Shown here in pieces: positions 12,596 through 58,865 of a DNA stretch of 64,000 bases (within the stretch, counting starts at the first letter, position 1; the number at the start of each line of letters is the position of its first letter). The stretch is taken from the NCBI GenBank assembly GCA_964106645.2, contig OZ067045.1. One strand, 5' to 3'. The stretch is from Podarcis pityusensis (lineage: Eukaryota). Below the pieces are notes generated by a model. That model worked only from the letters and a program-made list of their open reading frames with translations. It was not told the DNA's origin and ran no database searches. The translations under genes and the position numbers were made by a program.

Positions 12596-12601
12596 TTTAT
12601 T
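12596..12601 (-). terminator. Candidate LACTBL1 polyadenylation signal AATAAA
   Basis: First canonical AATAAA I found downstream of the stop (about 1.6 kb), with GT-rich sequence beyond it. Confidence 0.35.
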
Positions 12602-14192
12602 GGAAGGGTATATTATACAAGAGGTTTTATATTCCTGCGCAATACATTTACGGGACCAAAGCCATGAACAGCCCCATTCCCTCACTCTGCCTGCAAACAT
12701 CCTTCTTCAAACTGAAACATGCATTTGTAAGCTGGGGTGAATGAATCTGTTGATTTTGGTTTCTCTCCATTTTTCCTGTTGGACTTCCAAATCAGTTTGC
12801 TGTTGTTGTTTTTTTTTTAAGTCCTCATGTAAATCCACCAGCATTTCAGTGCAAATTTCTCCCTTTCTGTACAAAACGTTACCTGATGCAATTATTTCTA
12901 TATTCTATTTTCATGAATATATGCATTTTGGGGGCCCGCTTGCCCCTAACAGATGCAATTTTTGCACACATTATTTGGCATCACAAAATCTGAGGAAGTG
13001 CAGATTTTGAAGGACGACTGTGTTTCAGTTAACACACCATTTTGGAAGGTGTGAAATCACACCCAATTTCTCCCATCCCATGAATACCCATCTCTTCATA
13101 CCGCCCTGGTGTGAATACATCTGAACAAGACTCACACCATATATAAAAAAAGCACACAACCATTCATCTACAGAAACACCACACACTAGGGGTAGATCCT
13201 GCATCCAGAGACTGTCCGGGATGATGGTGGTTCTACTGTGTTCCGTTTACAAGGTTTTGTACAAAGCTATGACGCAATTCCATGACCTTCTGTTCCATCT
13301 CTCAGCTGACCCTGTGCTGTTATTATTATTATGTCCACACAAAACTTCCCTAGTCCATGGAGATGCCAATGGGCTCAATGTACTTGCTGGCTGGCTGGGC
13401 TTCAATTAGGGGTTGGCAACCTCAAGTCCAAGAGCTTCGTACAAACTCCCAGGTTTCTCTGTATGGCTCCACTGACCCTCCCAGCCACACCCCCATCTTC
13501 CCAGGCCACACCCACACCAATGCTTCCTTGCATTCCTTTAGTGTTTTTGCCTGGCTGTACTGTGTCCTTGAACTCAAATGGCTCTTGCTTGCCTGGACGG
13601 AGGATGGAAAGGGGTATGTGAATGTGTCTATCAGCTAGTCTATTGTACAAATGTAACACTCACATTCATTGATCCACCTGCTTTTGCCTCTGGCCCCGCC
13701 CACCCAGGCACATGACCCCAGGTAGGAGTTCATGAAGGGAATGCAGACCCCAGACTGAACAGGATTTCCCTACGCCTGGTCTTTTTGAAGGGCCCAAGCA
13801 TTTCCCCCCTCTCTTTCTCCCTCTTTTCCTCCAAGATTTGAGATTGCGCCTAGATCAGAACCTAGGCATGGTGAGAACTTGAAGGTGTCCCAAGAACGCG
13901 ATCCCAGAAGCTGTGTTGCTATTGCAGGGGGTGGGGAACTGCCTCCCAATTTTTTTGTGTCTCGGTGACCCATAAGGTGACTGGGGCATGTCCAAGTGGA
14001 CAGCTGTGGAGTTTGTGTTGGGTATCGGAGAGGGAAGAGGAAAGCTAAGCCATTGGCGGAGGTGGATATTCTCGGTTCCTTGCCACCTGGCTCGTTCTTT
14101 TCTGCAACCTGGTTGTTGGATGGCAGACCTGGGGGAAGCTGATACAGGGAGCTCAGAGTAGAAAATGTCTCTCTCACCCCTTCTGCTAGCAG

Positions 14193-15168
14193 CTAACTGT
14201 AGAATACTGGCTTGCGCTGGATGCGCACGACGTTGTATGTGTTCAGACCCGGAGCATCGAAGCCAGGGGACAAGCCCTTGCGATCAAAAGGGTAGAAATT
14301 GAAGAGCTGCCCATCCTGGGTCTCCAGGGACACGGAGGCAGAGCCTAAGTGCAGGGTGCATGGGAATTCCTTATCAAACACCACCTGGAAGACGCGGTCC
14401 TCAAGGTGATGCAGCTTGATGGTCCGATAATTCTCCGGGATCAGCTCCTCAATGTGCGGCCCAAACTGCTGCATGACCAGCACTCCGCCACCCCCAACCT
14501 TGATCTCATAGAAAGTCAGGTTGGAATAGGTGTAGTAGCCAACATAAGGGGTAGGGCTTGGGGGAGGGTTGAGGCTCTTCTCTGCCTCGCGAAAGGCGGA
14601 CTCCATGGCGGGGATCAGGTACTCGTAGGTCTGAGCTACGACGTCTCCTCGAGGGCGGGGACCAGCCATCAGCACAATGAAGCTCAGGCGGAGCTTGGGG
14701 ACCAGGGAGAAGGTGGCCGAATAGCCGTCCAGGTCACCGTCCTTCCTAATGATGTCATAGCCCAGTTGCTCGTTGATCTCCCAGGGCGTGCCGGTCTTGT
14801 TGGCAAAGTATTCGCTGGAGCACTTGAAGAGGGGCGTCAGCATGGTCTTCACGGTGTCAGGCTCCAGGAGACGTCGGTGGTACGTGCCCAGGAAGACCAT
14901 GGCCAGTTTGGCCAGGTCAGCAGCTGTGGAGTACATCTGCCCAGAAGGTCTGTACCAGCCCAGGTCATAGAGGGGTGCTGTCTGCCCGCTGCTGTAGAAA
15001 CCCACGGCCATCTGAGAGCGGATGGGAGGCGTGATGTCAAAGCCCGTGTCCTCCATCCCCAAGCGGTCAAGGATGTTCTCAGAAACCCAGCGCTGGTACT
15101 CGCCTTCTGCAGCGTGTTCAGCTAGGACGTGGGCCATTAACGAGAAAGCCAAGTTGCTATAATGACAT
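14193..15168 (-). CDS. LACTBL1: LACTBL1 last coding exon (976 nt; YSN and KDG motifs, stop TAG)
   Basis: Acceptor ctctcttctcAG at 15170-15169. Corresponds to ORF 14193..15152 (319 aa) with class C/PBP-like segments ILDRLGMEDTGF, PSGQMYSTAADLAK and KDGDLDGYSA. Confidence 0.96.
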
Positions 15169-18100
15169 CTGAGAAGAGAGAAAGAAAGATAGAAAGGAGC
15201 AAACCTTTTTCCAGGGTGCCCACTGAGTTTGACCTGAAATACTTGATGCAGTCATCCCACCTGCATCACAGAGACATAGATAAAGAATGTCAACTGGAAC
15301 TTACCATGGTGCTAATGCATCTTCTTATTCTATTAATGCAAATTTTACAGAGATGGGCGAAATGGATTATTTGGTGCTGTCTTACTAAAAGACCCAGGAA
15401 GACCTTTCTAAGTCGTATTTGGCTTATATATTGGCTGGCAGGGGCAAAATAAATAATGGGATCTGCACTGTTGCAAAGATTCTGTTTCCGTTTGGGTCAG
15501 TCATGCCATTTAATTTCTACGGATCTTTTCTGAGTAGGACTATCACTGCAGATAACTCTACGCATGTTTACTCATTTTATGCTATAAATTATATGATTTC
15601 CGTGTTTTGCACATAACGAAGTTTGCACTGAGATTCCTGCATTTCAGGGGGTTGGACTAAATGACCCTCAGACCCTTTCCAACTCTACAATTCTATCATT
15701 GAATGAACTGGAATTTGAGGATGAATGAAAAGTTGCCAAAAAGAGCAACACTCCACGATCTCTGTATGCTTCCAAAAATCTCACTCAAAAAGAATATCAG
15801 TACAATGGTATGCACAATCACATAGGAAGCTGTTCATCTCACTCAGTATGCCTACACTGACTGGCAGCAGCTCTCCAGGATTTCAGACCAGGAGTCTACT
15901 TGGAGATCGACATGGATAGAACCTTCTGTGTGAAAAATGGGAGTTCTACTAAGCTACACCACTTCCCCAAAGGATGTAGATAGATACACATCAGAAGGAC
16001 AACATGGTAGGGAAATGCTTTTCATTCCATCCTCCCCACACTCTCATAACTGCCTACCGAATGGATACTGCTGAAGGAGTCTGAATTGTAGCCAGATCCA
16101 TTGTGAGATTAAACACTTACAAAAAATATCTTAGGAGAGGACAGGAGAGGAAAGGGATCAGCTAAGCTGCTTTGACGATTTCTCACAGCTGAAGCAAGTA
16201 CATCACCATTTGGTGTCAAAGCCAGAACTGCAGTGTTTATCGTGGATCAGCTCCTTGAGCCTATCCAGCAATACACAAAACCTTGGTTGCAGGCTACTCC
16301 ATTTCAGCCCTTCAACCGGACTAGTAAACTAGAAAGCTGTCACAGTGAGAAACCAGGTTTTGTTTTACACCTGTACAAATCCAGGTAAAATAAGATCATT
16401 GTCTCACTGTTTGAAGCCTTAAAACAGGTGTGGGGAGAATTTTCAATGGTTGCATTCCTTTGTATGCAGCCATCTGGGATCCTGAGGCCAGTGGTGAGCT
16501 GGGCCAGAGGCAAAAGTGAGTAGGGCAATCAATATGACACTTACCTTTATACAGTAGACTATATTGCAACCAAACAAAGGTCAGCAATTTCTACACCTAC
16601 ACACATCTCTCCTTCCGCCATCCAGGTGAACAAGAGATGTTGTAACAGTTCAAGGGCACATTCCAGTCAGCCAAATGCACTCAAGGAGGGCTGGAGAGGG
16701 GTGTGACCCAAGGAGGGGGCATGGAACATGGAGACCCTCAGGGACCAGATAAATAGGCTTGGAGGACTGCATACCCTCGCCGGAAATGTGATTGGAGAAT
16801 GCTGGGTAGGGTACGATCATTCCAGCTTTCCCCTGTGTTCTCCTTATATGGTGTTGCAATTAGTAACTGCAACAGTTTGGAAACAGTCTATCTGGCTTGA
16901 GCTACAAATCAGCACCAATTGTAACAACCCATTCAGCTCTGTAGTGGTTTGTATCTGCTTCAACCAGATCCAGACAGGGCACAAATCAGCCCAATTTGGT
17001 TCAGTTTGGCCAAACATGGTGCAAAGTCCTAGGGCATTCTCACCTGGTTCCTGGGTCAGCCACCAGGACATCATCTTTCAACAGTGCCAATGCTTCTTGG
17101 GTTGTCCCTTTCCACAACAAAGTGGTTGAGCGCAGCCGTCGGGGCAAACCTGCAGTACCCAAGACATGAAAGAGAAGTCACTCATACTATCTACTGATGT
17201 CAGTTGGGAAAGAGGTGTGCGATAGGCTCTCACTTGCCAGATCTAGGTGGTTTAGAGCAAGGGGGAGTGGATTTCAGGCTTGGAAAACCAGAGCCAGTAG
17301 ATACAAACTATAGGGAGGGGTGATGGGAGTTTTAGTCCAACAGCTCTCATGTCTCAGCCTGAGGATTCCTCATCAGAGGATGACTCGGAAGCCCTGGAAT
17401 AGCACCAAGCTTTGGATCAGGCTCAGTTTGAAGATGAGGAACCAGGATCTTTGCATGAGACTATTTGGGGTTGGGCATCTGCACCACGGGAGAGATTGGC
17501 TGCTGAAAGTGAGGCTGAACAAGTCCTGAGCCCACGGGAGAGATGGGGCCTTTTATGAGACTGACAGAAAACCCATTCCATCCAGAGAGGTGTCTGGCTG
17601 CAGACAAGAACCCCTCAGGAATCAAGTCTTCACAAAAGCAGGATCCTTCTCCCAAGGAGACTTCTGGAAAAAGACAAGCTTATAGGCATCTAATGAGGTC
17701 ATGGTGTGGCTCCATCTCAAAGGCCTCGGTGCCATGCTGGGATTGCTGATCAAACAATGTCTGACAGGTTCTCTCCACACATACAATCCCTCACCTGAGA
17801 GCTGGCTGGCCATTCTGCGCAAAGTCACCGGGGACGGCTTGAGGGGCAGAGATCCCTTCTCCAGGAAGATCAGTCCATCCGCTGAGTATCTCTGCTCCGA
17901 CTCTTTGAGCCGCCCTAGGGGGTTCTTAATGGTGAAGCTCTGGGCATAACGTTCTAAAGGGTCGTCAAGTGATGTCACCTTCCCTTCCTCCCATAGCTTG
18001 TACAACATGATGGTGGGGAAGATCTTGGAGACACTTGCAATCCTACCAGGCACAAACATACCATACATAATCAGCTGGAGCATGCAAACAGGACACCCTC

Positions 18101-21100
18101 CAGACATGGTTGGATTTCAGGTCTAATCAGACCCAGGCCAGAACATAGGAAGCTAGCTTCTACCAAGTCAGATCTTTGGTTCACTTAGTTCAACATTGCC
18201 TGTACCGGTGTTTCCCAAACTTGGGTCTCCAGCTGTTTTTGGACTACAACTCCCATAATTCCTGGCTAGCAAGACCAGTGGTCTGAGATTATGGGAACTG
18301 TAGTCCAAAAACAGCTGGATATCCAAGTATGGGAAACATTGGTCTATACCAACTGGCAGAGGCTCTTCAGGGTTTCAGACAGGGAATCTTTCCAAGGCCT
18401 ACTTGGAGATGGTAGGAATTGAATCTGAGACCTTCTGCATGCAAAGCACATGCTAAACCACTGAGCTACATCCCACAGGCAATAGTCAGGTATGATGGGA
18501 ATTGTAGCCCAATAATAGATATGTAGGCTACCCTAGGCTGTGTTAGCTACCAAAGGACTTCCCATGGAAAGCTTCCTTTTCTTGGAAACATTCCACAGCA
18601 AAGGATTTCCCTCACACCTCCTCCCCATGGACGCCATTTGCTGGAAATGGAACCCCTTCTTCATAAGTGTCATTGAGCCACATAGTCCAAGAACGTAGAC
18701 GGGAGGATCGGTGTAGTTCAGAAATGAATATACTGACCGGTCGTGGGTTTCTTGGGTTGCAGGCAGAGGTCTTTCTCAGAGAAGACACTGCACACAGAAA
18801 TGTGCAGGCCGTTGAGACAAGAGACTCAGGCTGTTCACTTCACCTGTCCAGCTGGAGTGAGCAGCAGGCTCACCTGTAAATGGTGTATTCATTGGGGATG
18901 CCAGAGAAAGCGTCGGAGCCGTTGCGTTTCCCAAAGTTTCCTGTCCATAGTACTGTGTCGTTGTAGATGACGATGGCTGACAGAGCTGGCAGGCCAGGGC
19001 TCCGGATTTTGTGACGGAGAAGCGTGTCTACCTGCAGGAGATTTGAGAAGGGTAAAGAATGGAGAATCAGAGGCCTTCATCACCATCACCACCACCACCA
19101 CCACCACCACCACCATCATCATCTCTCTCTCTCTTTCTCTCTCTCTCATATATTTCTTTGCTTCTTATGGTGGGATATTTTTGGATTACCCATCTATAAA
19201 CGCTAGATAATCACTAAGGCTGCAATGAATTTTCACCGCCATGAGAAACGCTCCCTGAGAAAACCTGAACTGTTCCTTTTCCACTGCTGTTCCTTTATTG
19301 CTTCTGCTTTCTGCTGGGTGCCATTCCCTCTGCCCAACTCTCTGCATGATAAGAGATCAAACAAAGATTGTGATAACGTCAGCCTGTTCTGTTTGGGTGA
19401 TGATGCCAGAGAGCTAAGCCCGGGCCGGTCAGTACTTCCTGCCTACACTCTGAACAGCCCCAAAACGTAGCCAATCAGACAAAACCGCAATGCTAAATCG
19501 AAAGCGAGGCTTCCTACTTAAACTCTGAATGGCCGGCGATGGAGTTGTGCTATTGGTTGATATCACGAAGCCAGCTCAGAGGATGGCAGGGCTTCCCCCA
19601 CTCGCTCTGAACTTTCTTTCTTTAACCCAATGTGTATACCCCTTAACTCGATGAAAGATCCCCCTAAGTAGTTTACAAAGGGCAACCTAAAAAAGGAAAA
19701 TCCATTAAGAAAGGCCAATAAAAACAAGAGGAAGTTAACGCAGCAAATACAAATAAAACCAGCTCTCTTAAAACCACTACACTTCATAAAACCGCAAAGT
19801 TGCATGATAAAAATTACATGCCTGGATAGACTTTGCTGAAATGAAAAAAAGCTAAGCCTCCACCCTCCATAAGCCTCACCAAAACGTACCTTTTCAAGGG
19901 CATCCTTCAGTATTGGGATTGGGTGGTCCAAAGGCACGGGGTCTGGGTAACGGGGACACATCTGTACCGCTTCTGGCCTGACCTCCATCACTGATGGGGC
20001 TATGAACAGAAACAGAGACAGAGTGGTGGGAATGCCCATGGTTCAGGTAGGGGTGCTTGAGGAATTTGAGAGGCAGTGTGGTGTAGTGGTTAGAGTATCA
20101 AACTAGGACTTGGGAGACCAGGGTTCAAATTTCCACTCAGCCATGAGGCTCACTGGTTGACCTTGAGCCAGGCACTGTCTCTCAGCCTGCTGACCTCACA
20201 GGATTAAATGGAGACACCTTGAAAGGTGTGACATAAATGCAGTAATAAAGGAACAAACGTTCCAAATCAATAAAATTTGGATTGGCCGTCCTCCTTTCTA
20301 CCGTCTTCCTATCAAACAGGGCCAATGGAGCTTCCAAGGGGAAAACAAACACACCCATGGAAAACCTGGAAGCTGATGCATATAGGCCCCAACTTTTGGA
20401 TCTTTGGCGATTATTCCTGCATCGAAGGGGGTTGGACTAGATGACCTTTGGGGGAATCCCTTCAAACTCTATGATTCTATGATTCCCCCACCCTTTTAAA
20501 TGGACACCACTCTCTTCTATCTTGGCTGTTACTGAGTGAGAGGTTGTTGGGAGCTTAAGCTGCCTGTGCATATAAAAATAAAAACCTGCTTATTCGCAAG
20601 CGTAATGATGCTGAATTGTTAGGGGTGCTGCAAAGCCAGGGGAGGCAGCTTAAATGCCAAACAAGGACACTCTCCCCTCCACCCAGCTTTTGTTTCCCTT
20701 CCCTCTGCCTCCTTCACAGCCTCTCCATTGAGCTCAGAACACCAGCTGCGTTCTGAAAACCTCTTTTACCAGCAGCTAATATAACTGGAATGGAAAGGGG
20801 CACGTTGAGAAAGCAGATGTAGAATTACTAATCTATTGACAGCGGCAAGGCTGTCTGCTTCATTGTATTGGGGAAAGATCACTTCCCCAATTAACGGAAT
20901 GGGGCACTGGTATTACGGCTAAGATAGTGTTTCATGGAAAGGTTTGAGACAATAGGCAGAGACATAATAAACATTTTCCTCAATGGTTAATCAGCAGTGG
21001 AGCAGTTCAAATAAAGCGACAAGGAAACATTTGCAATGCATTTCTGTAAGTGTATGAGAAAAGCCCAGATGCTAGATCAGGCCAAAGGCTCATCTAATTC

Positions 21101-21131
21101 AACATTCAGTTCACACAGTGGCCAAGCAGAT

Positions 21132-21167
<36 letters not shown>

Positions 21168-22162
21168 GGATGGGAGCAGCAGCAGAACCTGATTGAAAAA
21201 GCATTCCTTCCCATTTCAGTTTACCAACTGCCTCTGGCAGTTCTGCAGATCAAAAGTGGTCAAATGGGTTTTGCATAAAAATATGTGTTGAAAAAATAGT
21301 TTCTCTCTAGGCACTTTTTTCTCGTTTTATCATAAAAAAATATACATACACTGGATGCTCAGGTTGAGAACGTGATTCATGTGGGATGCACGTTTGCAAC
21401 CCGCAGCGGCGCATCTGTGCATGCGCGGGTTGCGATTCGGCGCTTCTGTGCATGCGCAAAGTGTGATTTAGTGCTTCTGCGCATACACGACAGCCAAAAC
21501 CCGGAAGTAACCCATTCCGGTACTTCCAGGTTTCGGTGGGTCCGTAACCCGAAAAAACGCAACCTGAAGCGTCTGTAACCCAAGGTATGACTGTATATTG
21601 TGTGCATTTTGAGCCAAGGATTGCATCAGGACACTAGAGAAGCATGGAATCTGATCTGCACACTAGTCCAGGAAGTGCAGATCCACACCCTCCAACACTT
21701 CTCTGATGAAAATAGGGACATCCTATTCAACAACAATTTTATTATTTAAACCGCATCCATCTTGCAGAGTTGCCCCAGCCACTCTGGGTGGCTTCCGACA
21801 TACATAAAAAAACATAATAAAACATTCAGCATTAAAATACTTCCCTACACTGGACTGCTTTCAGATGTCTTCTAAAAGTTGCATAGTTACTTATCTCCTC
21901 GGCTCAGGGTGCAGCACTACTCCAGACCTCCCAACATTTCTCGAATAGGGATGTCCCACCATGCCCTCCAACATTTCTTCAATGAAAATAGGAAAAGCAG
22001 GGCATCCTGAGATCAAATTAGAAACTGGGATGGCTTCCATAAATCTGGGACTGTCCCTGGAAAACAGGGACACTTGGAGGGTCTGCAGATCAGGTCAGCT
22101 GATATGAGAATTTGCAAAGACTAAATTCCTTTAAAAATCCCTAGTTGCCTGGTAGAAGTGTG

Positions 22163-22210
<48 letters not shown>

Positions 22211-22479
22211 AAAGAAAACCTGTAAACGGTTCCCCCCTTGCTACTCTGGCCCCCTACACACTCTTCTGGTGAGAAGTGCCATGAAACTCTTTGGCCAGAA
22301 TGGGCTCGTTCAGATGGGCACCTGGTTCAATACTTACTGGGCTCCACTTTGGGAAGGCTATACTGCCAGAGGAAGCAGCTGGTCATGGCAACCGAGAGAA
22401 GGAAGAAGACGACGAGAGCCACATGGATCAACTTCACTTCCATAGCAGAGAGCCGGAAGAGGCTGTGGCCGCCAGAGGC
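14193..22479 (-). CDS. LACTBL1: Lactamase beta-like 1 (serine beta-lactamase/PBP fold); spliced CDS join(22479-22338,19999-19890,19031-18874,18042-17795,17149-17044,15168-14193)
   Basis: All five introns are GT..AG and phase-consistent. The joined translation is open: MEVKLIHVALVVFFLLSVAMTSCFLWQYSLPK...MCPRYPDPVPLDHPIPILKDALEKVD...IYNDTVLWTGNFGKRNGSD...YRIASVSKIF...HYSNLAFSL...IRKDGDLDGY...KPVFYS*. This matches my recollection of vertebrate LACTBL1. Confidence 0.95.
17044..17149 (-). CDS. LACTBL1: LACTBL1 coding exon (106 nt) GLPRRLRSTTLLWKGTTQEALALLKDDVLVADPGTR
   Basis: Bounded by tgcAG and GTgaga; phases match both neighbouring exons. Confidence 0.93.
17319..17770 (+). mobile_element. Degraded LTR-like fragment in a LACTBL1 intron
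   Basis: Acidic then SPRER reading frame similar in style to 44302-44730; boundaries approximate. Confidence 0.3.
17795..18042 (-). CDS. LACTBL1: LACTBL1 coding exon (248 nt) with catalytic SVSK (SxxK)
   Basis: Bounded by ggtAG and GTgagg; encodes RIASVSKIFPTIMLYKLWEEGKVTSLDDPLERY...VTLRRMASQLSG. Confidence 0.95.
18141..18470 (-). mobile_element. Squam3-like tRNA SINE interrupted by a MITE
   Basis: Reverse complement of the SINE at 48134, split at 18206-18341. Confidence 0.75.
18206..18341. mobile_element. Palindromic hAT MITE
   Basis: TIR GTGTTTCCCAAACTTGG / CCAAGTATGGGAAACA; TSD GCCTGTAC / GTCTATAC; same family as 56726-56869. Confidence 0.8.
18874..19031 (-). CDS. LACTBL1: LACTBL1 coding exon (158 nt) VDTLLRHKIRSPGLPALSAIVIYNDTVLWTGNFGKRNGSDAFSGIPNEYTIYR
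   Basis: Bounded by ctcctgcAG and GTgagc; phase-consistent. Confidence 0.94.
19890..19999 (-). CDS. LACTBL1: LACTBL1 coding exon (110 nt) (T)PSVMEVRPEAVQMCPRYPDPVPLDHPIPILKDALEK
   Basis: Bounded by tctgtttctgttcatAG and GTacgt; phase-consistent. Confidence 0.92.
20069..20250 (+). mobile_element. CORE/MIR-like tRNA SINE
   Basis: GGCAGTGTGGTGTAGTGGTTAGAG...GGGTTCAAAT...GACCTTGAGCCAG. Confidence 0.75.
21349..21593. mobile_element. Tigger-like MITE (related subfamily)
   Basis: TA|CACTGGATGCTCAGGTT...AACCCAAGGTATGACTG|TA; CpG-rich internal GCATGCGC repeats. Confidence 0.75.
21684..22085 (-). mobile_element. Composite hAT-like element carrying an L2-like 3' tail (copy A)
   Basis: TIR CACACCCTCCAA / TTGGAGGGTCTG; subterminal CCCTCCAACATTTCT..GAAAATAGG repeats; internal GTTGCCCCAGCCACTCTGGGTGGCTT. 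Confidence 0.65.
22338..22479 (-). CDS. LACTBL1: LACTBL1 exon encoding the hydrophobic N-terminal anchor: ASGGHSLFRLSAMEVKLIHVALVVFFLLSVAMTSCFLWQYSLPKVEP
   Basis: Bounded by cccagcAG and GTaagt. The phase-1 end joins the next exon in frame (A+CC=Thr). ATG at 22443 is in strong Kozak context (GCTATGG). Confidence 0.88.
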
Positions 22480-22834
22480 CTGCTGGGAGCAATGTTCAGG
22501 AGATGTTTAGCAAGGTTTTAGAATCACAGCTGAAACCACGGAACGCTACATGCAGCACAGAAAATTACATTTTAAGGACAGCGGGAAAAGGGCCATAGCT
22601 CAGCGACAGAGCAGAAGGTGCCTGCCACATTTCCTGGCCCTGGCCTGAGATGCTGGAGAGCCACTGGCAGCCAGTGTTGACAATACTGGCCTATATGGAC
22701 CAATGACCTGACTCAGTATAAGACAGCTTTCTATGTTCTTGGGAAGTGTGTGTGCCCTGTAAGGACAACATTTGACCTTTTATATGTTCCCTCTAAAAAT
22801 TGCTTGCTTGGGCAGGGTCCCTTCTTTGTCTATA

Positions 22835-23063
22835 CAGTGGTACCTCAGGTTACATACGCTTCAGGTTACAAACTCTGCTAACCCAGAAATAGTACATTGG
22901 GTGAAGAACTTTGCTTCAGGATGAGAACAGAAATCGTGTGGCAGCGGAGCAGCAGCAGCAGCAGGAGGCCCCATTAGCTAAAGTGGTGCTTCAGGTTAAG
23001 AACAATTTCAGGTTAAGAACAGACCTCCAGAATGAATTAAGTACTTAACCCGAGGTACCACTG
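22835..23063. mobile_element. Tigger-like MITE, copy 2
   Basis: TA-flanked CAGTGGTACCTC...GAGGTACCACTG. Confidence 0.9.
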
Positions 23064-24314
23064 TACAAGGAGGGGGACAAAACTAGAATTCATTTACTCT
23101 GCCTGTCCTTGGCTCTGGCACCTCCTACTGTTGGCCTCCCTGCTTTTCACCCTACCAATCTCAATGGGTATCAGCCAACACTGGCCTTATGAAATGATAC
23201 CTTTTCCGCCAGTGGTGAAATGGCCAACTGTTTCCTACACTCCTCTGATTCTGTTTGACCTTGGAGGCAGAGATGCTTCTGAGTAACGGTTTCTGGGAAT
23301 CCCAGGTGGATGCACAGGTCCTGTTTATGGGGCTCCCATGGAGCCATCTGGTTGGTCACTGCGAGAACTGGAAGCTAGACTAGATGGGCCATGGGTGTGA
23401 TCCAGCAGGGCTCTTCTTATGTTCTCATCTATTCTTTAAATTAAGGGCTCATCCACACCTCCGCTCATCCCATGTGTAGAAAGCACGGGTCTGAGTGGTT
23501 TCCCCCTTGCTCCCTTTCCAAGGGAAAACCCATTCTTTAGTGCCAAATTGGAGCAAACAGCAATCCAGAGGAAACACAAATTGCTGCTTGCTCCCCAGGA
23601 GGAAGCAGCAGGACAAGAGGAAATGTGGGTAAGCTATCATAATAAAAAATTCTCCAAGCCTTTGATACAAAAACAGTTTTGTAAAAAGCAGTAACTTTCA
23701 GTAACATTTCCTAGTTAAAGAAAGTAAGATAAAAACAAAGCAAATTATGCATATCAAAAGTAAAACCAAGCAGTGTAGAAAGCAGGAGTCAGAATTGAGG
23801 AAACTTTGGGAAAACTAAGTTTTAAAGAGGCATTTAAATGGCATTCCTGTCTGCCTCACTGATTGTCTTCAAGGGACAACCCAGTGGTTGCGGAACAACC
23901 AGCAGGGTCTCTTCAGAAGATCTCAAACATCAGCTTAGTCTGTGTTAGGGGAGGTGGTCTTGTAGATATCCTGGTCCAAAATTGTTTCAAGCAGCACCCC
24001 CCTTTCCAAAACATCACAGCTTCAGAGAACGTAATGGACACCCCTAGATTTTGACCATTTTCTTCATCTGTTGGGTTGAGACCCATAAGGGAATTGCTGC
24101 AAGCCCTACGGTGGACCACTTCAACATCATCACATCCCTCCCCCAACTAAATAGCAGTTAACAAGCAAGGGGGAAAGTGAGAAAGATACAAATTTATACC
24201 AGCTCTATAGAATTTTAAGTGGCATAGGATTCCCTCAAGGAACTGGAAATTTTAGTTTAGGGTAGGTGTCAATAATTTTCTGCTGGATTTCTCTCTCCCT
24301 CCCTCCCTCCCATA

Positions 24315-24352
<38 letters not shown>

Positions 24353-25272
24353 AATCCCAAAGAAGCCTTTGTAATAATAAAAAGTATCCCTTGCGATTGA
24401 AACTTCCACAATAGCCTTCTCAACTCTGACTAAATGTAGACAACCTGGGTACCTACCTAATTCAAATGTTATGGAAAAAATATGTAGCCATACTTCGACA
24501 TCCACATTTCTCTGAATTTTGCCATGCAGTTCTCCAGCTAAGTAATGAGCATGAAAAATGTATCTGCTGGGGTACAATGCGCCTTACTTGGTAAATAGCA
24601 TACAGGAAAACGGCTTTGCAAAACAAAAGAAAAAAAGGTATTTGGGGCAAAATTGCTTACATGTGTATAGAATTCTCACTCAAATGCTGCAAATTTTCAA
24701 TAGGGACATTTTAGAAAAATTGAAGTGGAAATGCAGAGAACTAAACTTACGTTTGGAGAAATAGCAAGAAGCAGAGAGAAACTGAAAGCGACCGCTTTGC
24801 CCATCCCTGGGTGTCAGCCTCCCCAGCCCTTGCCCAGCCTTACCAGCAGGACCTGGGGCTACTGCAAGCCCAACAGAAGGCACTCCCTCCTTCTGCAGTC
24901 TCGAGGTCTTCCAGGCAATGCCATAATGGGCAAGCTGTCATCCGCAATGGAGCAGCAACCCATTAGAGGACGACTCTCCACTGTGCGCTGTGGACACTGT
25001 TGCTGATTCTGGCTGTTGTGGGTCTGCTCCAGTCCCCTTTTGGCATTTCCCCCACACACACCGCACCAGCTGCAGGCCTCCCCCTCTCCCCACTGTCCTC
25101 AGGGACTCCATGGCCCTGCCAACAGGGTGAAAGCCAGAGATTTCCTTGGCTAAACCCCCTGGGGGAGGGGGCGTAAGCTGCTGTGTGCTGTGTTTGTGTG
25201 CTCTGGGATCCCTGCTGCCTGGCAGATACTGACCCCAAAGAACTGGATTCTCCTGTCAATCTGCCTCGTTCC

Positions 25273-25318
<46 letters not shown>

Positions 25319-25395
25319 CCTCCCTGTCTCTTTGCACAGCAGTATCTCACCCTGTGGATGCCACGGCAGTGTCTGGGCCCCAGACATTCCCATAC

Positions 25396-25583
25396 AGGAA
25401 CATTGGAAACTGCAATATACTGAGTCAAAACATTGGTCCAGCTAGCTCAGTGCTGTCTACACTGACTGACAGACGTTTTCCAGGGTTTTCAGGCAAGGGT
25501 TTCTCCCAGCCCTCAAGGGAGATGCTGGGGTTTGGATTTGGGACCTTCTGCAGGCAAGGGAGATGCCCCACCACTGGGCTACG
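25396..25583 (-). mobile_element. Squam3-like tRNA SINE
   Basis: Reverse complement of the SINE at 48134. Confidence 0.7.
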
Positions 25584-26614
25584 TAAATGCAAAACAGGGA
25601 GTTCCCTCGAATCTCCTGCAGACGGGAAAGGAAAAACAAGTCCAACCCCTAACAGATTCGCTCTTGTGAGTTCACCGCAATGTAATTTCACTCCGGCATG
25701 TTAAAGGAAACCAACAGAGCCACTGAAACAACCAGCGATATCAATTTTAAAACCAGCCAGGGTGCAATCTGAGCAAACTCAGGGGAATGGGGGAATACTT
25801 AGAGTTGCTTTATTTTAATTTTAAAAAAGGGTTGTTGTGAATAGCATAGTTGTGCAACTCAAGGTGAAACAACATGCTATCTCGGGAAAATATAGGGTTT
25901 CCAAACCAAGACTTTGCTGCTGTAACACAAACATGGGGATTTGTTAAGGATGAATTAGAGGGTGAGAATGGAGTGTTTATTTCCTCTGACATCCACTGAT
26001 TCTCCCCCATAAATGACTCTTTTTTTTTTTTGGTCTCAGAACATGGCAGCAGGGTGGAAAATGTTTCTGCCATTATGTCCCTTTAGGATACTTTTGGGTT
26101 TGCCCTGCTTTGCACTCTGCCAAACCTGTCCACATTCTCGATTAACCCTGCAGCCACAGAGACGTTTGCCTCCACACATTTGCTAAATGGATAGAGGGAG
26201 ATCAGGGTTATGTCTGCTTAGCTCCACATTTGATGCTGGACATCCCACCGGTCAGTTTCAATTTCTCCCATTTTTCCAATCTTAAATCCAGTTTTTCCAC
26301 ATTTCTGCATCAATTTGCAGTTGCTTCATTGCATTTTAAAAGGCTTCACGGGCATTAGTCAGAAACACAGGATTATATTCAACGCTAGTCCGATTAGTCC
26401 CACTGAATTGAACAGACATGGCTAAATTTGGTTCATCGATTTTAATGGGTCTTCTCTGAGTCCAATTTAGTTGGTGACATCCCTTACATTAATCCTACCA
26501 CAAACATTTCTGAGAGCTGTTTTCTTTAATGGCACGCATCCCCCCCCCCCAAAAAAAGTCATTTTCACCCATATACAGTATTTTGAATGTATAAGAGCAA
26601 GGGCAACTAAGGAA

Positions 26615-26760
26615 GCTGAGATAGCTCAGTCAGTTGAGCATGAGACTCTTAATCTCTGGGTTGTGGGTTCGAGTCCCACATTGAGCAAAAGATTCCTGCA
26701 TCACAGGAGTTGGACTGGATGACCTTTGCAGTCCCTTCCAGCTCTACAATACTATGATTT
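26615..26760 (+). mobile_element. tRNA-Lys/CR1-tail SINE, copy 2
   Basis: Same structure as 933-1075. Confidence 0.8.
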
Positions 26761-27363
26761 GATGACCAAGGCTGGGGCATCATGAAAGGAGAGCACATTG
26801 CTAGTCCTTCTGACTGCAGTTCCATAGCCATGGAAACATCCCTACCAAGGCTGGTGCTCCACTGATTGCCACCCTACTGGGTCTTCTTTGTTAACATAGG
26901 AAATCATTGGTCCATCTAGCTCAGCATTGTCTACACTGACTGGCAGCAGCTCTTTGGGGTTTCGGGAAGGGAGCCTTTTCCAGGCCCACCTGGAGATGCT
27001 GCTGGGGAATGAACTTGGAAAGCAGATGCTCTACCATGGAGCTGTTCCCTTTGATCCCCCTAAGCTGCAATAATAATAATGAAAACATTTGTGCTGGGCT
27101 ATGGATTGGGGCAGGTGTGTCTGTCTGCACCCTGCATTGTCAGTCTCTGCCAGCTTCTGCCTGAGAAGTGAGACCAGTATTACTCCATTAGTGCAGGATT
27201 GCTGTCAGCAGGAGCCCGCAGGAAGTTCAAAACTGAGGGATTCCAGGCATGGGAAGGAGAGGAGTGGGGTCCCACTGCTACCATGGCTGGTGCAGTGATT
27301 TGCTTGGCTCCCTGCCTGCCTTTCACTCAGTCTGGCGTAAGTGATGGGCCTGTGAAGGAAAAA

Positions 27364-27689
27364 AAAGTAAAGGACCCCTGGACGGTTAATTCCAGTCAAA
27401 GGCAACTATGGGGTTGTGGCGCTCATCTCACTTTCAGGCCGAGGGAGCTGGCGTTTGTCCGCAGACAGCTTTCTGGGTCATTTGCCCAGCAGGACTAAAC
27501 CGCTTCTGGTGCAACGGGACACCGTGACAGAAGTCAGAGTGCATGGAAATGCCATTTACCCTTCTTGCCACAGCAGTACCTATTTATCTACTTGCGCTGG
27601 TGTTCTTTTGAACTCCTAGGTTGGCAGGAGCTGGGACAGAGCAACGGGAGCTTGCTCCGTCGTGGGGATTCGAACCACCGACCTTCTGA
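27364..27689 (-). mobile_element. Sauria SINE (5' truncated)
   Basis: AAAGTAAAGGACCCCTG...GGCGCTCATCTC...GGGATTCGAACC. Confidence 0.85.
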
Positions 27690-28474
27690 GCGACCTTCTG
27701 TAGTGGCAGCATGAGGCCTGCCTCTCCATCATGTCCTCCTGCTGCCTGCCTGGAGTTTGGATTCCCTTGCTGGTTCCCTTTCAGCCATTCTGGCTTCCCA
27801 CAACGCCACCGCTTTCATCAAGGAGCAGGGATTAATCCTACGAGAATGGGGAGGGGGAGTTTGCGCTTCCCTCTCACGGAGAGATTGCATATTAATTCTC
27901 TCTAATGCTTCTCAGCCATGTAGGCAAAATGCGGGGGGGGGGGGGCTGACCTCAGCTATTTATAATAAAAAAAACCCTTCAATCTCCTCTCAGCATCTGC
28001 TGGGGCGGGGGATTACCCCAGCCAATGGGCAGCCCCATCCCTCTCTCCTATAACAAGATCCCCGTGGGGCTGATTACACTCCTGTGTGGTCTGTTTTCTC
28101 CTTCCATTTGAATCCTCGCTGCCCATCAACACGCTTTAAATTACAAAGCAAGAGGCACAGTCAGGATCTCTTAAGGCAGAGCCTATCTGTACTGACCAAG
28201 AGATGCTCAGTCTCCTGAAGAACATGAAGGTCAGAATGAGGCCTGAATAGTCCAGCATATTTTTTTTTTTTTGCAAGGAGCCTGTCAGTACTAGGTCATC
28301 CTGCACATCTAGGCCAGTGGTCCATCAGACAACCTCAACCTTCCTCTTCCTGTATGGTTTGCAAGCAGTAGTGGAAATAATGAAAACATCCATTTAGGTG
28401 CACAAGTGAAAATATCTGAGTTCTACAGGGCCGGTAGAGTGAGGCAGCTGCCTTAGGTGGCAGAACCTGGCTTG

Positions 28475-28859
28475 CAGACCTTCCAAGTGTTGCTATTTTC
28501 CAGGGACAGTCCTGGATTTACAAAAGCCGTCCCAGTTTCTGATTTGATCCTGGAATGTCCCACTTTTCCTTAAGACGACCCTATTTCCATCGGAGAAATG
28601 TTGGAGGGTATGGTAGGATGTCCCTATTTTCACCAGAGAAATGTTGGAGGGTATGAAGTTATCCAACCCCCAAGCCATCTGAAGGCAGCTCTGCATAGGG
28701 AAGGTTCCTAAATGTTTAATATGTTATTATGTTTTTATATGTGTTACAAGCCACCCAGAGTGGCTGGGGCAACCTAGTCAGATGGGCTGGGTATAACTGA
28801 ATGAATGAATGAATGAACAGGACATCCCTATTTTCACTGGATAAATGTTGGAGAATATG
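28475..28859 (+). mobile_element. Composite hAT-like element carrying an L2-like 3' tail (copy B)
   Basis: Inverted counterpart of 21684-22085, with the same subterminal repeats and internal tail. Confidence 0.65.
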
Positions 28860-29579
28860 ATGGTAGCAACAGTCTTCCCGCCACGCTTCCCAAGTCCTTC
28901 TCTGCACACAATAGCCTGATGCCTTGGAATACAATGGAGGGTGCTGTCCTATTGCCAGTGTTGACGTAAGATCCAACTGCCCATGTGGTCAGATTCTGCA
29001 TGTGAAATCTGGGCAGCATCACAGGAACACAAGAAGCTGCTTTATATTGAGCCAGGTCCATCTAAGTTTTGCATTTTGTACAGTGACTATTGGCAGCTCT
29101 CTGGGGTTTCAAGCTAGAATCTTTCTCAGACCTACCTGAGCATGTTGGGGATGGAACCTGCAACCTTTGGTATGCAGCCCTTCAAGCTTGTCCTTTGCAC
29201 CACAAGCAGTCAAATGTCTTGGGCTGAGCCTGGGGTTCTAAAACACAGCGGGAGGGGGAGCCTCCACCAGAACAGCAAGCACCCCACTTCACAACGGATG
29301 GAAGGCGATCAGAGCAGCAACACGCAGTGGGAGCGGGTGTGCTCATCCCCACATCCCCTCTGCTGTATATTTCCATAACACAAATACCAAATGCCAGAAG
29401 ACCAGCAGAGGCTACTCCATTAATCCCCACCTGCCTGTTTCCTTATTTGCAACCAATCCAGGGATTGGCCCTGCCTGTTAGCAGGGCCTCCTTAAGTCTC
29501 AGTGTTGCCCCTTGTAGAACTCAACAGGCTGTGTGTGCAAAACTAAAATGACTGGTCTCTGTCTGGCACTGGCTCTGAT

Positions 29580-29797
29580 TTATCTATTTATTGCATCAAC
29601 ACCCCACCTTTTCTTCAGGGTGTGCTTGGTTCTTCCCCCTCCCCTGTTTAACCCCCACAACAACCCAGTGAGGTAGGCCAGGCTGAGAGGCAGTGACCTT
29701 GCCAAGGTCACCCAGTGAGCTTCATGGCTGCTTGGTGATTTGAACCCCAGTCTCTCCCAGATCCTAAGCACTCTAACCATTGCACCACACTGCCTCA
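29580..29797 (-). mobile_element. CORE/MIR-like tRNA SINE
   Basis: CCAAGGTCACCCAGTGAGCTTCATGGCT...ATTTGAACCC...GCACCACACTGCCTC. Confidence 0.75.
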
Positions 29798-30214
29798 CAA
29801 TAGACGAAGTATCTCAGGAGGTGATTCCACCTATTGAAGGGCGGCTGACGCTCTGCGTCATCATTCCCAATAATAGGCAGGGTGAAAGCAAGACTGTAGG
29901 CTTCTTCACTGATTTTTTTTTTATTACTTTAAAAAATCAAAAATTATTTAGTATGGGTGTAGGCATTGGCCAGTCCATGAGTTTCTCATCCGTGCCGGCT
30001 TTATTTTATTTATTAAATTTCCAAACTGCCCTTCATCCGAGGATCACAGGGTAGTTTGCAATATAAAAACCACAAAAATGCATAACTAGAAACAGGCAAA
30101 CCGGCAGCGTCCTCTCTACACAGTTCCTAAAGGTGCAGGATCCCATCCTCTTTTGCATCTGGCTCTCCATCTGGTTAAGGAGGAAACCCCAGCTAACAGC
30201 AGGATCCTGTTCTC

Positions 30215-30631
30215 TCTTTCTAAAAAATATATTTTTATTAATTTTTACATGAAATTTCAAAACAAAACAAAACAACATACAACATATTTTCTCATCTTAT
30301 TCAGTGTTTTGGACTTCCATCAACCATATCTGAAGATTTTTCAATCTTTATCACTTAATCTGCATTTCATTAATTTCACTATTACTTTTAATAGTCTTTC
30401 ACTAATAGTTCTCTTCATACTTTTCTCTGTAATATTTCACATAGTCCTCCTTACAAACCTTCTTGCAATCCTACTAGCATAATCTGTTGATTACAATTGC
30501 TTTTCAGATAATTCACACAGTCCTCTGAGAATCTCTTATCCCGCAGGTTTCAAATCCTTCCTGTCATCTTGTCTAATTCTGCATAGTCATTAATTTTGTC
30601 TGCCATTCCTCTTTCGTCAGTAATTCTTCTT
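30215..30631 (-). mobile_element. L1 LINE 3' end
   Basis: Exact 16-bp TSD GCAGGATCCTGTTCTC at 30199-30214 and 30632-30647; minus strand has L1 ORF2 C-terminus-like KEEWQTKL..DYAELDKMTG and an AATAAA tail. Confidence 0.85.
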
Positions 30632-30719
30632 GCAGGATCCTGTTCTCAATGTACTCCTATTACATTCAGTGGGAACTACTCTAGGTGGGTATGCAATGGC
30701 AGCCTAAACCCTCATTCTG

Positions 30720-31245
30720 TGTCCCACACTTACTATGTTTTGGGAGACAGTGCTGAACTATATTAATAAGACACTATGGGGAAAAGTAAGATTTTTCAGA
30801 GGTCAATATGCTCTTGAACTATATACCCATTGTATGGAAATTGACAACAGGACAGTGAAAATGGATTCTATGTGCCCTAACGGTAGCCAAGAGACTGCTA
30901 CTAAAGAATTGGAAGAATAGAGGTACGATTCTGCTCAATCGATGGCATGACAACATGACAACATTGGCAACATATGAATGGACAGCTTATAGACACAGAC
31001 TGTCTTTGGATAAATACAATGGAATGAGTTTATACAGAATATATTAGGTTATTGAAAAGTATATGTGTATTAGGATAATAAGAATATACATATTTGTATA
31101 TTAATGTATGGTAATGTAACAGTGTTGTTTCTTTTTTTCCATTCTCACTTTTTCTTTCTTCTTTTTCCCCACTCTTTTTTATAAATGATTTTTTCTTAAT
31201 AAAATATTAATATATAATTTTTTTTATTAAAAAAGAAAAGAAAAG
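30720..31245 (+). mobile_element. L1 LINE 3' end
   Basis: Exact 14-bp TSD AAACCCTCATTCTG at 30706-30719 and 31246-31259; AATAAA plus A-rich tail. Confidence 0.8.
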
Positions 31246-31365
31246 AAACCCTCATTCTGCTTTCTGCCCTACATTGCACTACTCATCCTATGGCATGGCG
31301 CAATAAAGAGTTAAATATTTGTGCTGTTTATCATGCCCAGAAGGAGACGACCAATGATATCTATG

Positions 31366-31550
31366 GAACACATGAAGCTGCCTAAAATGCAGATCACTGG
31401 TCCATCTAGCTCACTATTGTCAACTCGGACTGGCAGCATCTCTCCAGGGTTTCAAAGCAGGGACACTGCCTGCCCAATCTGGAGATGCTGAGGACTGAAC
31501 AGGGCTGCTGTCTGCGAAGCAGGAGTTCTACCACTGAGCTACAGCTCTTC
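31366..31550 (-). mobile_element. Squam3-like tRNA SINE
   Basis: GGTCCATCTAGCTCA...TACCACTGAGCTACAG. Confidence 0.7.
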
Positions 31551-31847
31551 CCCAAAGTGCCAAATTTGCAGAACTGCACTTGCGATGACTTGTTTTAAAA
31601 CCACCTTGGCTGTGTTCCCCTCCTGACTGTTGGGGTTGTTTTGTTTTCCTCCATCATTTCCCCCCTCAGTTGTTCAGACTTGCCCCCAGGCAGCAGTTAA
31701 CTTGCAGATACATAAATTAACCTATGCAAATGAGAAATAACGAGGAGGATGGCAGACCTGGCCTTCTTATCAGAGAGCCCAGGTTGCAGCACCCAGAGGG
31801 CAGCTGCAGACTCCCTCTCCTCTCCCCTCCTCCTTATTGAGGCTTAC

Positions 31848-31932
31848 CCGAAGCTGCAGGCCTTCCATAGCTCGCTACAGTTTTTCCTTCATGGCGTCCA
31901 CCGATATCTCTAAAAATCCAGGGAGATGGCCC
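31848..31932 (-). CDS. LACTBL1: Probable upstream LACTBL1 exon (5' UTR plus MEGLQLR, ATG at 31868)
   Basis: Acceptor cctctcttgcAG and donor CGG|GTaagc. GCTATGG start followed by 7 codons ending in phase 0, compatible with the phase-0 start of exon 22479. Confidence 0.5.
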
Positions 31933-32691
31933 CTGCAAGAGAGGTAGGATCAGTTAGAATAGGGCTCCTTCATAATCCAGTGATTGGGAGACCTGGGAAG
32001 CAGGTGCTCTGAAACTTCCTATGGCCTCCGATAAATCTTCATCACCTTTTCCTCCTCCTATATTTGCAGGTAGGATGTCTTCCTCTGGCCTTTCATTTCT
32101 CTAAAAGCCAAAGGAAGCTTAAATGGGTGCTCTGGTGCTGGCCAGGCATTTGGGGCTACGGGGCACTGCCCACCTCCCCAAATCTGTTCCGGTAGACTTT
32201 GCTTGTTGGAATAATCCAACAAGCAAAACCACCCCTACCTCCCCAAAAAGGAGCCTCGCAAGGGCCACCAACTCCCATTTTGCAGAGATGCCATAAAAAA
32301 AAGTTCTTACCAGGCTCTTTGCTTCTGCTTTGTGTGTCCAAGCGGTGCTGCCTGGGAGTTTGGGGGCTGGCGTCCTGCTGCAGATGTTAAGACCGGACAG
32401 AACGGTAATCCCGTCGGGCGCAGATTACTCCCCTCGCCAAGGCAATGTGCAGGCTGTGGAACATCTGGTCCAGAGCAAGCCCAAATGCAGCCTGGGGTTT
32501 CAGGGGGCAGACGGGGAGGAGTGCTTTAAGCCCTGGCATAAACATTTGCTGGCTGAGCTGTGCAGGCAGCTGACCACTCCAGATTTCAGAAGGGAAATGT
32601 GTTAATCGGAGCAGGAAGGGAAGGAGGTGGAAGGGTGCTGGGCCTTGGGACAGCCGGGCAGCCTTCACTGCAAAGGCTGTATGTGTTGCAA

Positions 32692-32773
32692 CATAGAATC
32701 ATAGAGTCGGAAGGGACCACGAGGGTCATCTAGTCCAACCCCCTGCAACACAGGAATCTTTTGCCCAACATGG
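32692..32773 (-). mobile_element. tRNA-Lys/CR1-tail SINE, partial copy
   Basis: CATAGAATCATAGAG...CAGGAATCTTTTGCCCAACATGG, cut off at the adjacent DNA transposon. Confidence 0.65.
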
Positions 32774-32778
32774 AGATT

Positions 32779-33451
32779 CACTGGGAAACAATTTTTTTGT
32801 TGCATTGTCACCTGCAGTTGTTCTAACCTAATTTCGACATGCTGATTTCATATCTGAAGTTGGCTTTGTTCTGTAAGCTCTAGTTTTTTGCAATTCATGT
32901 TTTTCACTTTTCACCATAATCTTTGTTTTTCACAATGCAAGAATTCAACATTTTATTAAACGGATTGCCAAAGTACTACAATATGAGTATAAATGTAAGT
33001 GACTTATATAGTATTGAACATGACATGTATAGCATTGAAGATGACATGTATATCTATGTACAGCTGGAGGTATGCAAAAAATGTATTCCCTTGGGATACA
33101 CAGTATACTGGGGAACAATTTTTTCCCCATTTTGTATTGCATGAGATTTTTCAGCGTGTACATGCTATAGTTATCTTTCAATTTCCGACTTTTGCCGTTA
33201 TGTTATATTTACACAACTATAAAAATAAAGAAAAATAATAATTACCATGTGGTTAGGGTAGATCAATGTGTCAGTGTCCACTTAACCCCAGTGTAAATAT
33301 GACATAACAGCAAAAGTCGGAAATTGAAAGATAACTATAGCACGTACACGAAAATCGATTTCAGATTTGAAATCAGTATTGAAAGAACATATAAGAACAG
33401 TTGAAAAATCTCATGCAAAAGAAAATGAAAAAAAAAAATTGTTCCCCAGTG
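32779..33451. mobile_element. Chapaev3/CMC-like non-autonomous DNA transposon with internal fold-back
   Basis: TIR CACTGGGAAACAATTTTTTT / AAAAAATTGTTCCCCAGTG; subterminal GCTGATTTCATATCTGAA / TTCAGATTTGAAATCAG; a third end at 33106. Confidence 0.6.
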
Positions 33452-48133: not shown

Positions 48134-48292
48134 CATAGCTCAGTGGTAGAGCATCTGCCTTGCAAGCAGAAGGTCCCAGGTTCAATCCCCAGCATCTCCT
48201 AGCAGGGTTGGAAGGGACTCCTGCCTGAAATCCCAGCGTAGACAACACAGAGCTAGATGGACTTGGTATAAGTCAGCTTCCTGGGTTCTTAT
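48134..48292 (+). mobile_element. Squam3-like tRNA SINE
   Basis: TAGCTCAGTGGTAGAGC A-box, GGTTCAATCCC B-box and tail GCTTCCTGGGTTCTTAT. Confidence 0.8.
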
Positions 48293-58761: not shown

Positions 58762-58865
58762 TGGAAGCAGCAGGCAGGGGTCTTTCCTAGCCCTGCCTGG
58801 AGATGCTGGGGACTGAACCTGGGACCTTCTGCATGCAAAGCAGGTGCTCTACCCCTGAGCTACAC
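58762..58865 (-). mobile_element. Squam3-like tRNA SINE head
   Basis: GGGACTGAACCTGGGACCTTCTGCATGCAAAGCAGGTGCTCTACCCCTGAGCTAC. Confidence 0.75.

Follow-up and report, generated by a model that had tools for sequence, protein, structure and literature searches.

The stretch analyzed here (hereafter the window) comprises 64,000 nucleotides of contig OZ067045.1 from the lizard Podarcis pityusensis (assembly GCA_964106645.2) and contains, on its minus strand, the gene for LACTBL1, a protein of the beta-lactamase fold. The question raised by this locus is whether an exon absent from the list of open reading frames (ORFs) supplies the protein with a membrane anchor and, if so, what kind of enzyme would be placed beyond the membrane. 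A glycosylated type II serine hydrolase of the secretory pathway or cell surface had been proposed in an initial annotation, and this proposal was supported in part by charge, conservation and fold matches. Judging mainly from sequence, the product is probably a type II secretory-pathway hydrolase of the S12 (penicillin-binding) family with a glycosylated, outward-facing domain, and would likely act as a peptidase or amidase.

The window holds an intact LACTBL1 gene of seven coding exons, including a spliced-in hydrophobic exon. A minus-strand GT-AG chain (22443-22338, 19999-19890, 19031-18874, 18042-17795, 17149-17044 and 15168-14193) gives one open frame of 567 residues from MEVK, in agreement with the in-frame splicing proposed initially. 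The anchor exon (22479/22482-22338) has AG acceptors and a GTAAGT donor, is spliced in phase 1 onto 19999-19890, and encodes the rest of the predicted cytosolic tail, a second in-frame ATG at 22443, the membrane segment and the start of the stalk. However, MEVK, which had been taken as the N-terminus, is probably not the true start. The frame remains open above it as far as the anchor-exon acceptor, a region in which bird and frog models carry 20 extra residues, and tblastn searches located the first seven residues of these models at 31868-31848, ahead of a GTAAG donor. This first coding exon has seven codons from ATG 31868, an in-frame stop above the ATG and a candidate acceptor that places the exon start at 31932. 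Because it is spliced on upstream, the protein would comprise 587 rather than 567 residues, the added sequence forming a 20-residue tail.

The joints on both sides of the anchor exon were seen in a contig of run X10 (3639 nt, RNA by guess, from a related species). The contig covers exactly 22338-22483 with seven differing letters in 146, and at its loose ends it agrees with 19970-19999 and 31849-31878, in each case with two mismatches in 30 and at the single best place in the window; hence, the junction 22338>19999 expected from the initial annotation and the upstream junction were each observed once. The acceptor used is 22482, the second AG of this NAGNAG motif being at 22479; paired bird and frog models differ by one Gln at this same place. 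A contig of run X1 covers 14552-15165 in the last coding exon, which is 96% identical to an Anolis LACTBL1 model. A broad comparison of reads and contigs with 13500-33000 was dominated by repeats and listed no exon joints, and none of the runs recorded as RNA contains this stretch. Raw runs X21, X23 and X24, with 6-12% of each sampled, gave near-zero depth over the exons, which says nothing of expression elsewhere.

Several features surround the two ends of the gene. A five-codon upstream ORF (31875-31892, minus strand) that shares the frame of the main ORF ends 6 nt before the main ATG and could divert initiation to ATG 22443. A strong donor-like site, CTG/GTAAGA, lies at about 32312 (minus strand), some 380 nt above the first coding exon; since the X10 contig has about 170 nt of 5' sequence beyond that exon, this site may end an exon of the 5' untranslated region. 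The first AATAAA past the stop (12596-12601, minus strand) is a candidate polyadenylation signal that would fit the length of the X10 contig, albeit one from another species.

The segment encoded at 22431-22366, which had been described as hydrophobic, is the best 19-residue hydrophobic window of the whole protein (Kyte-Doolittle 2.38), and hydropathy, conservation, charge and the model of the owl orthologue place a predicted type II transmembrane helix there (residues 25-46 of 587). Topology was evaluated in those 131 of 192 pooled orthologue rows whose anchor could be used. In 120 of these, the uncharged run spans 22-23 residues, and the charge after the helix minus that before it is negative in 122, zero in five and positive in four. 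The features of a type II protein are present: close to the N-terminus there is a single hydrophobic segment some 20 residues long, and the charge distribution is positive-inside. Column identity is 0.90 at the helix end and 0.83 in the catalytic domain, and the anchor residues M, F, W, Q and K are identical in all 82 exon-bearing rows. A cleaved signal peptide is rarely conserved as strongly as this helix end, and its conservation above that of the catalytic domain makes such a peptide unlikely. The proline-rich stalk noted initially was found (four Pro in about 22 residues), though it is poorly conserved (0.47). The tail before the helix mostly comprises 17-50 residues, reaching about 50 in some models, and is limited to four residues in only 14 of 81 rows. 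[quoted passage not shown]

On this basis, a type II single-pass topology is predicted for the protein, with good support from the sequence. Its catalytic domain would very probably be lumenal or extracellular, and the anchor would probably remain uncleaved; between the cell surface and the endoplasmic reticulum (ER) or Golgi, the evidence leans slightly towards the surface. Within the helix, Cys43 (22375-22377 region, minus strand), three residues before the helix end, is kept in 79 of 82 rows as part of a near-invariant S-x-x-M-T-x-C-F-x-W-Q face, and may serve dimerization, acylation or a partner. Among the long-tail models, 20 of 26 begin with MGxxx[ST]K (18 named ray-finned fishes and two unnamed, e.g. 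P0069 and P0087), a motif that is absent from tetrapod tails. It resembles the N-myristoylation consensus, a cytosolic mark.

All four sequons (NDT, NGS, NKT and NLT) that had been assigned to the catalytic region are present, but NLT sits in the C-terminal barrel. Their positions are fixed from shark to bird (110/110, 110/110, 119/120 and 120/120 rows), with a variable middle residue at three sites, and in a set including mammals they are kept in 52, 52, 49 and 52 of 52 rows. All four fall in loops or turns of the model, and the N-x-T at site 116 is not required in distant relatives. This positional fixation appears to be better evidence of glycosylation than the sequon count. Furthermore, of 70 distant rows, reaching out to amoebae, 65 retain Cys70 and 69 retain the barrel Cys, which suggests a Cys70-Cys533 disulfide.

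The order of these features along the gene (all minus strand) was assigned from the sequence, motifs and alignments. Exon 19890-19999 encodes the stalk, the MCPR motif with conserved Cys70 (19958-19956) and the first helix; exon 18874-19031 encodes sequons N116 (18962) and N129 (18923); exon 17795-18042 encodes the SxxK motif, SVSK at residue 148, with Ser148 (18035-18033) and Lys151; and exon 17044-17149 encodes an LPR stretch of the S12 domain that is conserved. The last coding exon (14193-15168) encodes YSN at residue 266 (Tyr266, 15161), sequon N386, KDG (Lys405, 14744), a linker, the barrel and the stop. In the predicted model, the lipocalin-like beta-barrel (14196-14576) contains sequon N479 and conserved Cys533. 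The barrel used as a query gave one match in the genome of the species itself, which indicates a single-copy gene.

The predicted fold is an S12 serine-hydrolase domain followed by a lipocalin-like barrel. The sole Pfam family matched is Beta-lactamase (PF00144), with 66 bits for the last exon and 133-145 bits for the whole owl and human proteins at a cut-off of 27. S148, K151, K405 and G407 are invariant in 123 rows, and in distant relatives the K and G of the third motif are invariant while the middle residue is free. Among mammal orthologues (e.g. P0270, P0381 and P0389), 65 of 68 rows carry YST as the second motif, and the platypus and other vertebrates have YSN, which would represent a therian change at the active site. 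In a Foldseek search with the whole model, Pab87, IS11, the Lip3 DL-peptidase and SurE ranked first, and in the ESM Atlas the protein's own family was followed by clusters of the S12-plus-barrel kind. Modeled in isolation, the C-terminal 127 residues still gave a fold (pLDDT 90.7). When this barrel was compared with 48,161 chains, the top five matches, all of the S12-plus-barrel kind, were IS11 (Z 9.5), D-aminopeptidase (DAP; 9.4), SurE (8.7), Ulm16 (8.4) and Pab87 (7.9), with root-mean-square deviations (rmsd) of 2.7-3.1 Å over 82-97 aligned residues; a Foldseek search with the barrel alone gave no match under E 0.001.

From these motifs, it is highly likely that the protein is catalytically active, and analogy with its structural relatives makes a peptidase or amidase likely. 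The substrate is not fixed by the fold, as the latter is shared with esterases. D-stereospecificity has been described for Pab87 and for the majority of S12 proteases (PMC2651629), and D-Asp is the residue after which LACTB cuts (PMC12148432); a peptide or amide with a D-residue or another atypical bond is therefore the leading guess, although a doubtful one. A structure-embedding method labeled A8MY62 class C beta-lactamase-like (10.1101/2023.10.13.562298). In the proposed mechanism, the uncleaved anchor would insert with the N-terminus inside, so that the hydrolase domain would face the secretory lumen or the cell exterior, where four Asn residues would be glycosylated and the Cys70-Cys533 disulfide would tie the N-terminal strand to the barrel. 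Ser148 would be acylated with the assistance of Lys151, Tyr266 and Lys405, as in S12 enzymes, and the barrel would shape substrate access, as in DAP, SurE and Pab87.

The architecture can be compared with that of known enzymes. The two-domain MEROPS S12 enzymes (Pab87 CubicO peptidase, Ochrobactrum D-aminopeptidase, SurE/Ulm16, Lip3 DL-peptidase and IS11 esterase) also have an S12 domain followed by a lipocalin-like barrel, with SxxK and YxN motifs. However, they are prokaryotic, share 14-22% identity with LACTBL1 and have neither a type II anchor nor glycans; in addition, the barrel of LACTBL1 is placed differently (whole-chain rmsd about 18 Å) and the KDG third motif is its own. LACTB, a mitochondrial filament-forming serine protease with D-aspartyl endopeptidase activity in vitro, has the same fold (Z 35.7, rmsd 3.0 Å, 333 residues) and the catalytic Ser, Lys and Tyr, whereas its identity is about 22%, it has a mitochondrial import sequence and an HTG third motif, and the match ends at the catalytic domain. 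LACTB had been named as the paralogue, but it proved to be a distant lineage: its chains match at E ~3e-15, which is no stronger than the matches to S12 proteins from bacteria and archaea, and LACTBL1 has KDG rather than HTG and a hydrophobic anchor in place of the import sequence. LACTB is also described as a separate lineage in PMC2266909. Closer in sequence are the dictyostelid beta-lactamase-like proteins of the 'LACTB-like 2' lineage (Peitsaro 2008), with 30% identity (D. purpureum), the CP motif, the barrel Cys and many sequons, although they begin with a signal-peptide-like N-terminus instead of a tail and anchor; LACTBL1 would correspond to this 'LACTB-like 2'. Neprilysin, DPP4, aminopeptidase N and NAALADase/GCPII are examples of type II ecto-peptidases with a short cytosolic tail, a signal anchor, a stalk and a glycosylated ectodomain. 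This layout resembles that predicted for LACTBL1, but the folds are unrelated and the likeness is one of topology only.

A number of observations weigh against the interpretation of LACTBL1 as a glycosylated type II ecto-peptidase. The topology case is drawn wholly from hydropathy, charge and conservation, and the junction support consists of a single contig from another species; runs X2, X3 and X11 gave no contig on the anchor exon (one of four runs did). The number of sequons is not above chance (four against 1.8 in shuffles, P ~0.09) and the reversed motif is nearly as common (4.0 against 4.8 per protein), and the count was thus rejected as evidence. In a modest test, Ser/Thr occurs at +2 for four of 12 conserved Asn (P 0.012) and at -2 for two of 12 (P 0.25), values that are rough because the columns are not independent. 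The putative disulfide derives from co-conservation rather than from coordinates. The third motif is KDG, not [KH][ST]G, in 119 of 120 rows. The catalytic domain is equally near to esterases, class C beta-lactamases and peptidases (Z 35-38.5), and the best single match of the barrel is an esterase (IS11). Finally, the retinal data considered below come from mammals rather than from this reptile, and the eyeIntegration atlas expression entry for LACTBL1 is 'FALSE' (PMC9355568 source data).

Some of these points could be accommodated by an esterase or acyltransferase of the same topology that resides in the ER or Golgi, uses lipids or small acyl compounds as substrates and binds a hydrophobic ligand in its barrel. 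Both domains match the esterase IS11 best, esterases and acyltransferases lie within 1-3 Z units of peptidases, and the Phe-rich helix and the Arg clusters in amphibian tails resemble Golgi/ER retention features. However, the uncharged run of 22-23 residues is not short, the other two-domain matches are D-peptide enzymes and the Arg clusters are missing from the tail encoded in the window; such an enzyme is considered unlikely. A secreted enzyme, like the protist relatives, would result if the hydrophobic segment were a cleaved signal peptide, especially with a start at ATG 22443. This ATG has a good context, the upstream ORF ends just before the first ATG, small residues occur near the helix end, the four-residue tail is found in those 14 of 81 rows and 47 of 70 distant relatives appear to be signal-peptide-led. 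Against this, a peptide that is discarded would not normally be more conserved than the catalytic domain, as the helix end is; tails of 17-50 residues occur in most models, cnidarians keep long tails with the same helix end, and in three of 82 rows Leu replaces the small residue before F. Cleavage is therefore improbable.

The same motifs bear on whether the protein is an enzyme at all and on which compartment it enters. The non-canonical KDG, the change from YSN to YST in mammals and the lack of any reported activity would suit a cell-surface protein without catalysis that serves for binding or as a scaffold, but the active-site Ser, Lys, Tyr and Lys are near-invariant in 123 rows and active LACTB also has YST (PMC2266909), so that a silent protein is very improbable. 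A mitochondrial or cytosol-facing enzyme like LACTB, as the common fold, the name and the E-value of the LACTB chains might imply, is hardly credible given that prokaryotic S12 proteins match equally well, that the lineages are separate (PMC2266909) and that LACTBL1 has fixed sequons, a Cys pair and a strongly hydrophobic helix preceded by basic residues. The outward-facing type II peptidase or amidase would also account for the failure of a human 63-450 construct, the single expression attempt found, which was insoluble in E. coli (PMC12148432): its insolubility would follow from the loss of the barrel, of the partner Cys and of glycans. A glycosylated, disulfide-tied two-domain ectoenzyme points to the use of the whole ectodomain, secreted from animal cells, for its production.

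The origin of the anchor was considered using more distant relatives. A profile search of 1.84 billion representatives gave 221 proteins below E 1e-30; from the best 150, 70 long distant rows were chosen and their N-termini were classed by a crude hydropathy rule. A signal-peptide-like start was found in 47 rows, an internal anchor in 12 and neither in five, while six were without the N-terminus. The named anchored rows are cnidarian, with long tails and the same helix end, and the named signal-led rows are dictyostelids. In a quick-method tree of the 70 rows, 14 vertebrate-type rows and 10 anchored rows (six named cnidarian and four unnamed) formed one clade (SH-aLRT 97), and two rows called anchored fell outside it. 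These data suggest a secreted ancestor with the anchor gained early in animals, an order that follows only from a midpoint-rooted tree without a LACTB row. Cnidarians possess several anchored paralogues (three Nematostella clusters and Hydra; P0146, P0147, P0231 and P0247) as against one vertebrate gene. The existence of cnidarian and protist relatives implies that the ancestral role was not visual.

The gene and the anchor exon are already present in current databases, and the sequence feature is not new; the description of an 'undescribed system' is not supported. The exon motif, whose conservation in vertebrate orthologues was confirmed, occurs in RefSeq-type models of 82 of the 120 best non-mammal hits, the remaining 38 being either fragments or models whose start lies further down or in different sequence, and among 68 mammal rows the anchor is whole in 47, while 16 start inside it and five are without it. 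The human reference protein had been described as starting at the MCPR Met without an anchor; however, NP_001276903.1 (filed with UniRef100_A8MY62) is 579 residues long and contains the anchor, as in current RefSeq and UniProt, and that description fits the older 500-residue A8MY62 model. Only older or Ensembl-type models lack the anchor. The 500-residue AlphaFold entry of A8MY62 is listed in Table 1 of PMC12148432, and this anchorless model was used in two recent papers. The human construct in PMC12148432 starts at residue 63, the MCPR Met of the 579-residue form, and a domain-figure legend names 'TM' (transmembrane), which, judging from the legend alone, would be drawn on LACTBL1. Seven unplaced bases of human NM_001289974.1 were considered as the anchor-exon end, but this was ruled out since they fit the first codons of the 579-residue protein.

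Full-length identity of the lizard protein is 88% to owl and alligator and 64% to human (576 aligned residues). The human protein shares the anchor, the Cys pair, the four sequons, SxxK and KDG, but has a different short tail with a Lys cluster, and YST in place of YSN. Bat, echidna and rodent models (P0123, P0131, P0356, P0363, P0372 and P0380) that are short or flagged as low quality could be further losses or gene-model errors. LACTBL1 is found in list entries and in tumor and genome-wide association results (PMC5009343, PMC3530609, PMC10425369, PMC8987137). In the passages covered of these four papers and of PMC2266909 and PMC12148432, the topology, localization or activity of LACTBL1 is nowhere stated, and the gene is in no title among the papers listed as naming it.

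In mammals, the enzyme would likely act at the surface or along the secretory route of retinal bipolar cells. The labels nanGal1, hetGla2 and chrAsi1 are taken here to denote the blind mole rat, naked mole rat and golden mole, and Grm6, Gpr179, Pcp2, Lrit1, Sebox and Gabrr1 are presumed to be bipolar-cell genes. A gene-loss screen placed LACTBL1 in a set of 26 genes that low-acuity mammals have lost, and gave for it retina-type expression and a single-nucleotide polymorphism (SNP) for refractive error nearby (10.1101/2022.02.25.481972); the losses concern nanGal1, hetGla2 and chrAsi1, that is, three of eight low-acuity as against none of 20 high-acuity mammals, and the Human Protein Atlas labels are 'bipolar cells' and 'retina' (PMC9355568 source data). 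In retinal explants, Lactbl1 drops along with the six genes named above (PMC11412021). The bipolar-cell enrichment, the convergent loss in subterranean mammals and the linked SNP make LACTBL1 a tractable candidate enzyme for an extracellular role in retinal signaling, and a candidate extracellular counterpart of the D-Asp peptidase activity of LACTB. A wider scenario, which is rather unlikely to hold as a whole, is that a secreted peptidoglycan-type peptidase of phagotrophic protists gave rise to an animal ecto-enzyme, which became anchored before the cnidarian-vertebrate split and in vertebrates serves at the bipolar-cell surface, where its target in the retinal synaptic space is a peptide or amide with a D-residue. 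LACTBL1 would then be an unrecognized, drug-accessible enzyme of vision whose role is marked by its loss in blind burrowers.

Elsewhere in the window, eleven other long ORFs had no Pfam match. Five tRNA-like Rfam matches were found at 940-997, 18404-18475, 26615-26687, 48136-48192 and 58798-58869; these are probably the heads of tRNA-derived short interspersed elements, and three of them lie in or beside heavily repeat-covered or similar sequence.

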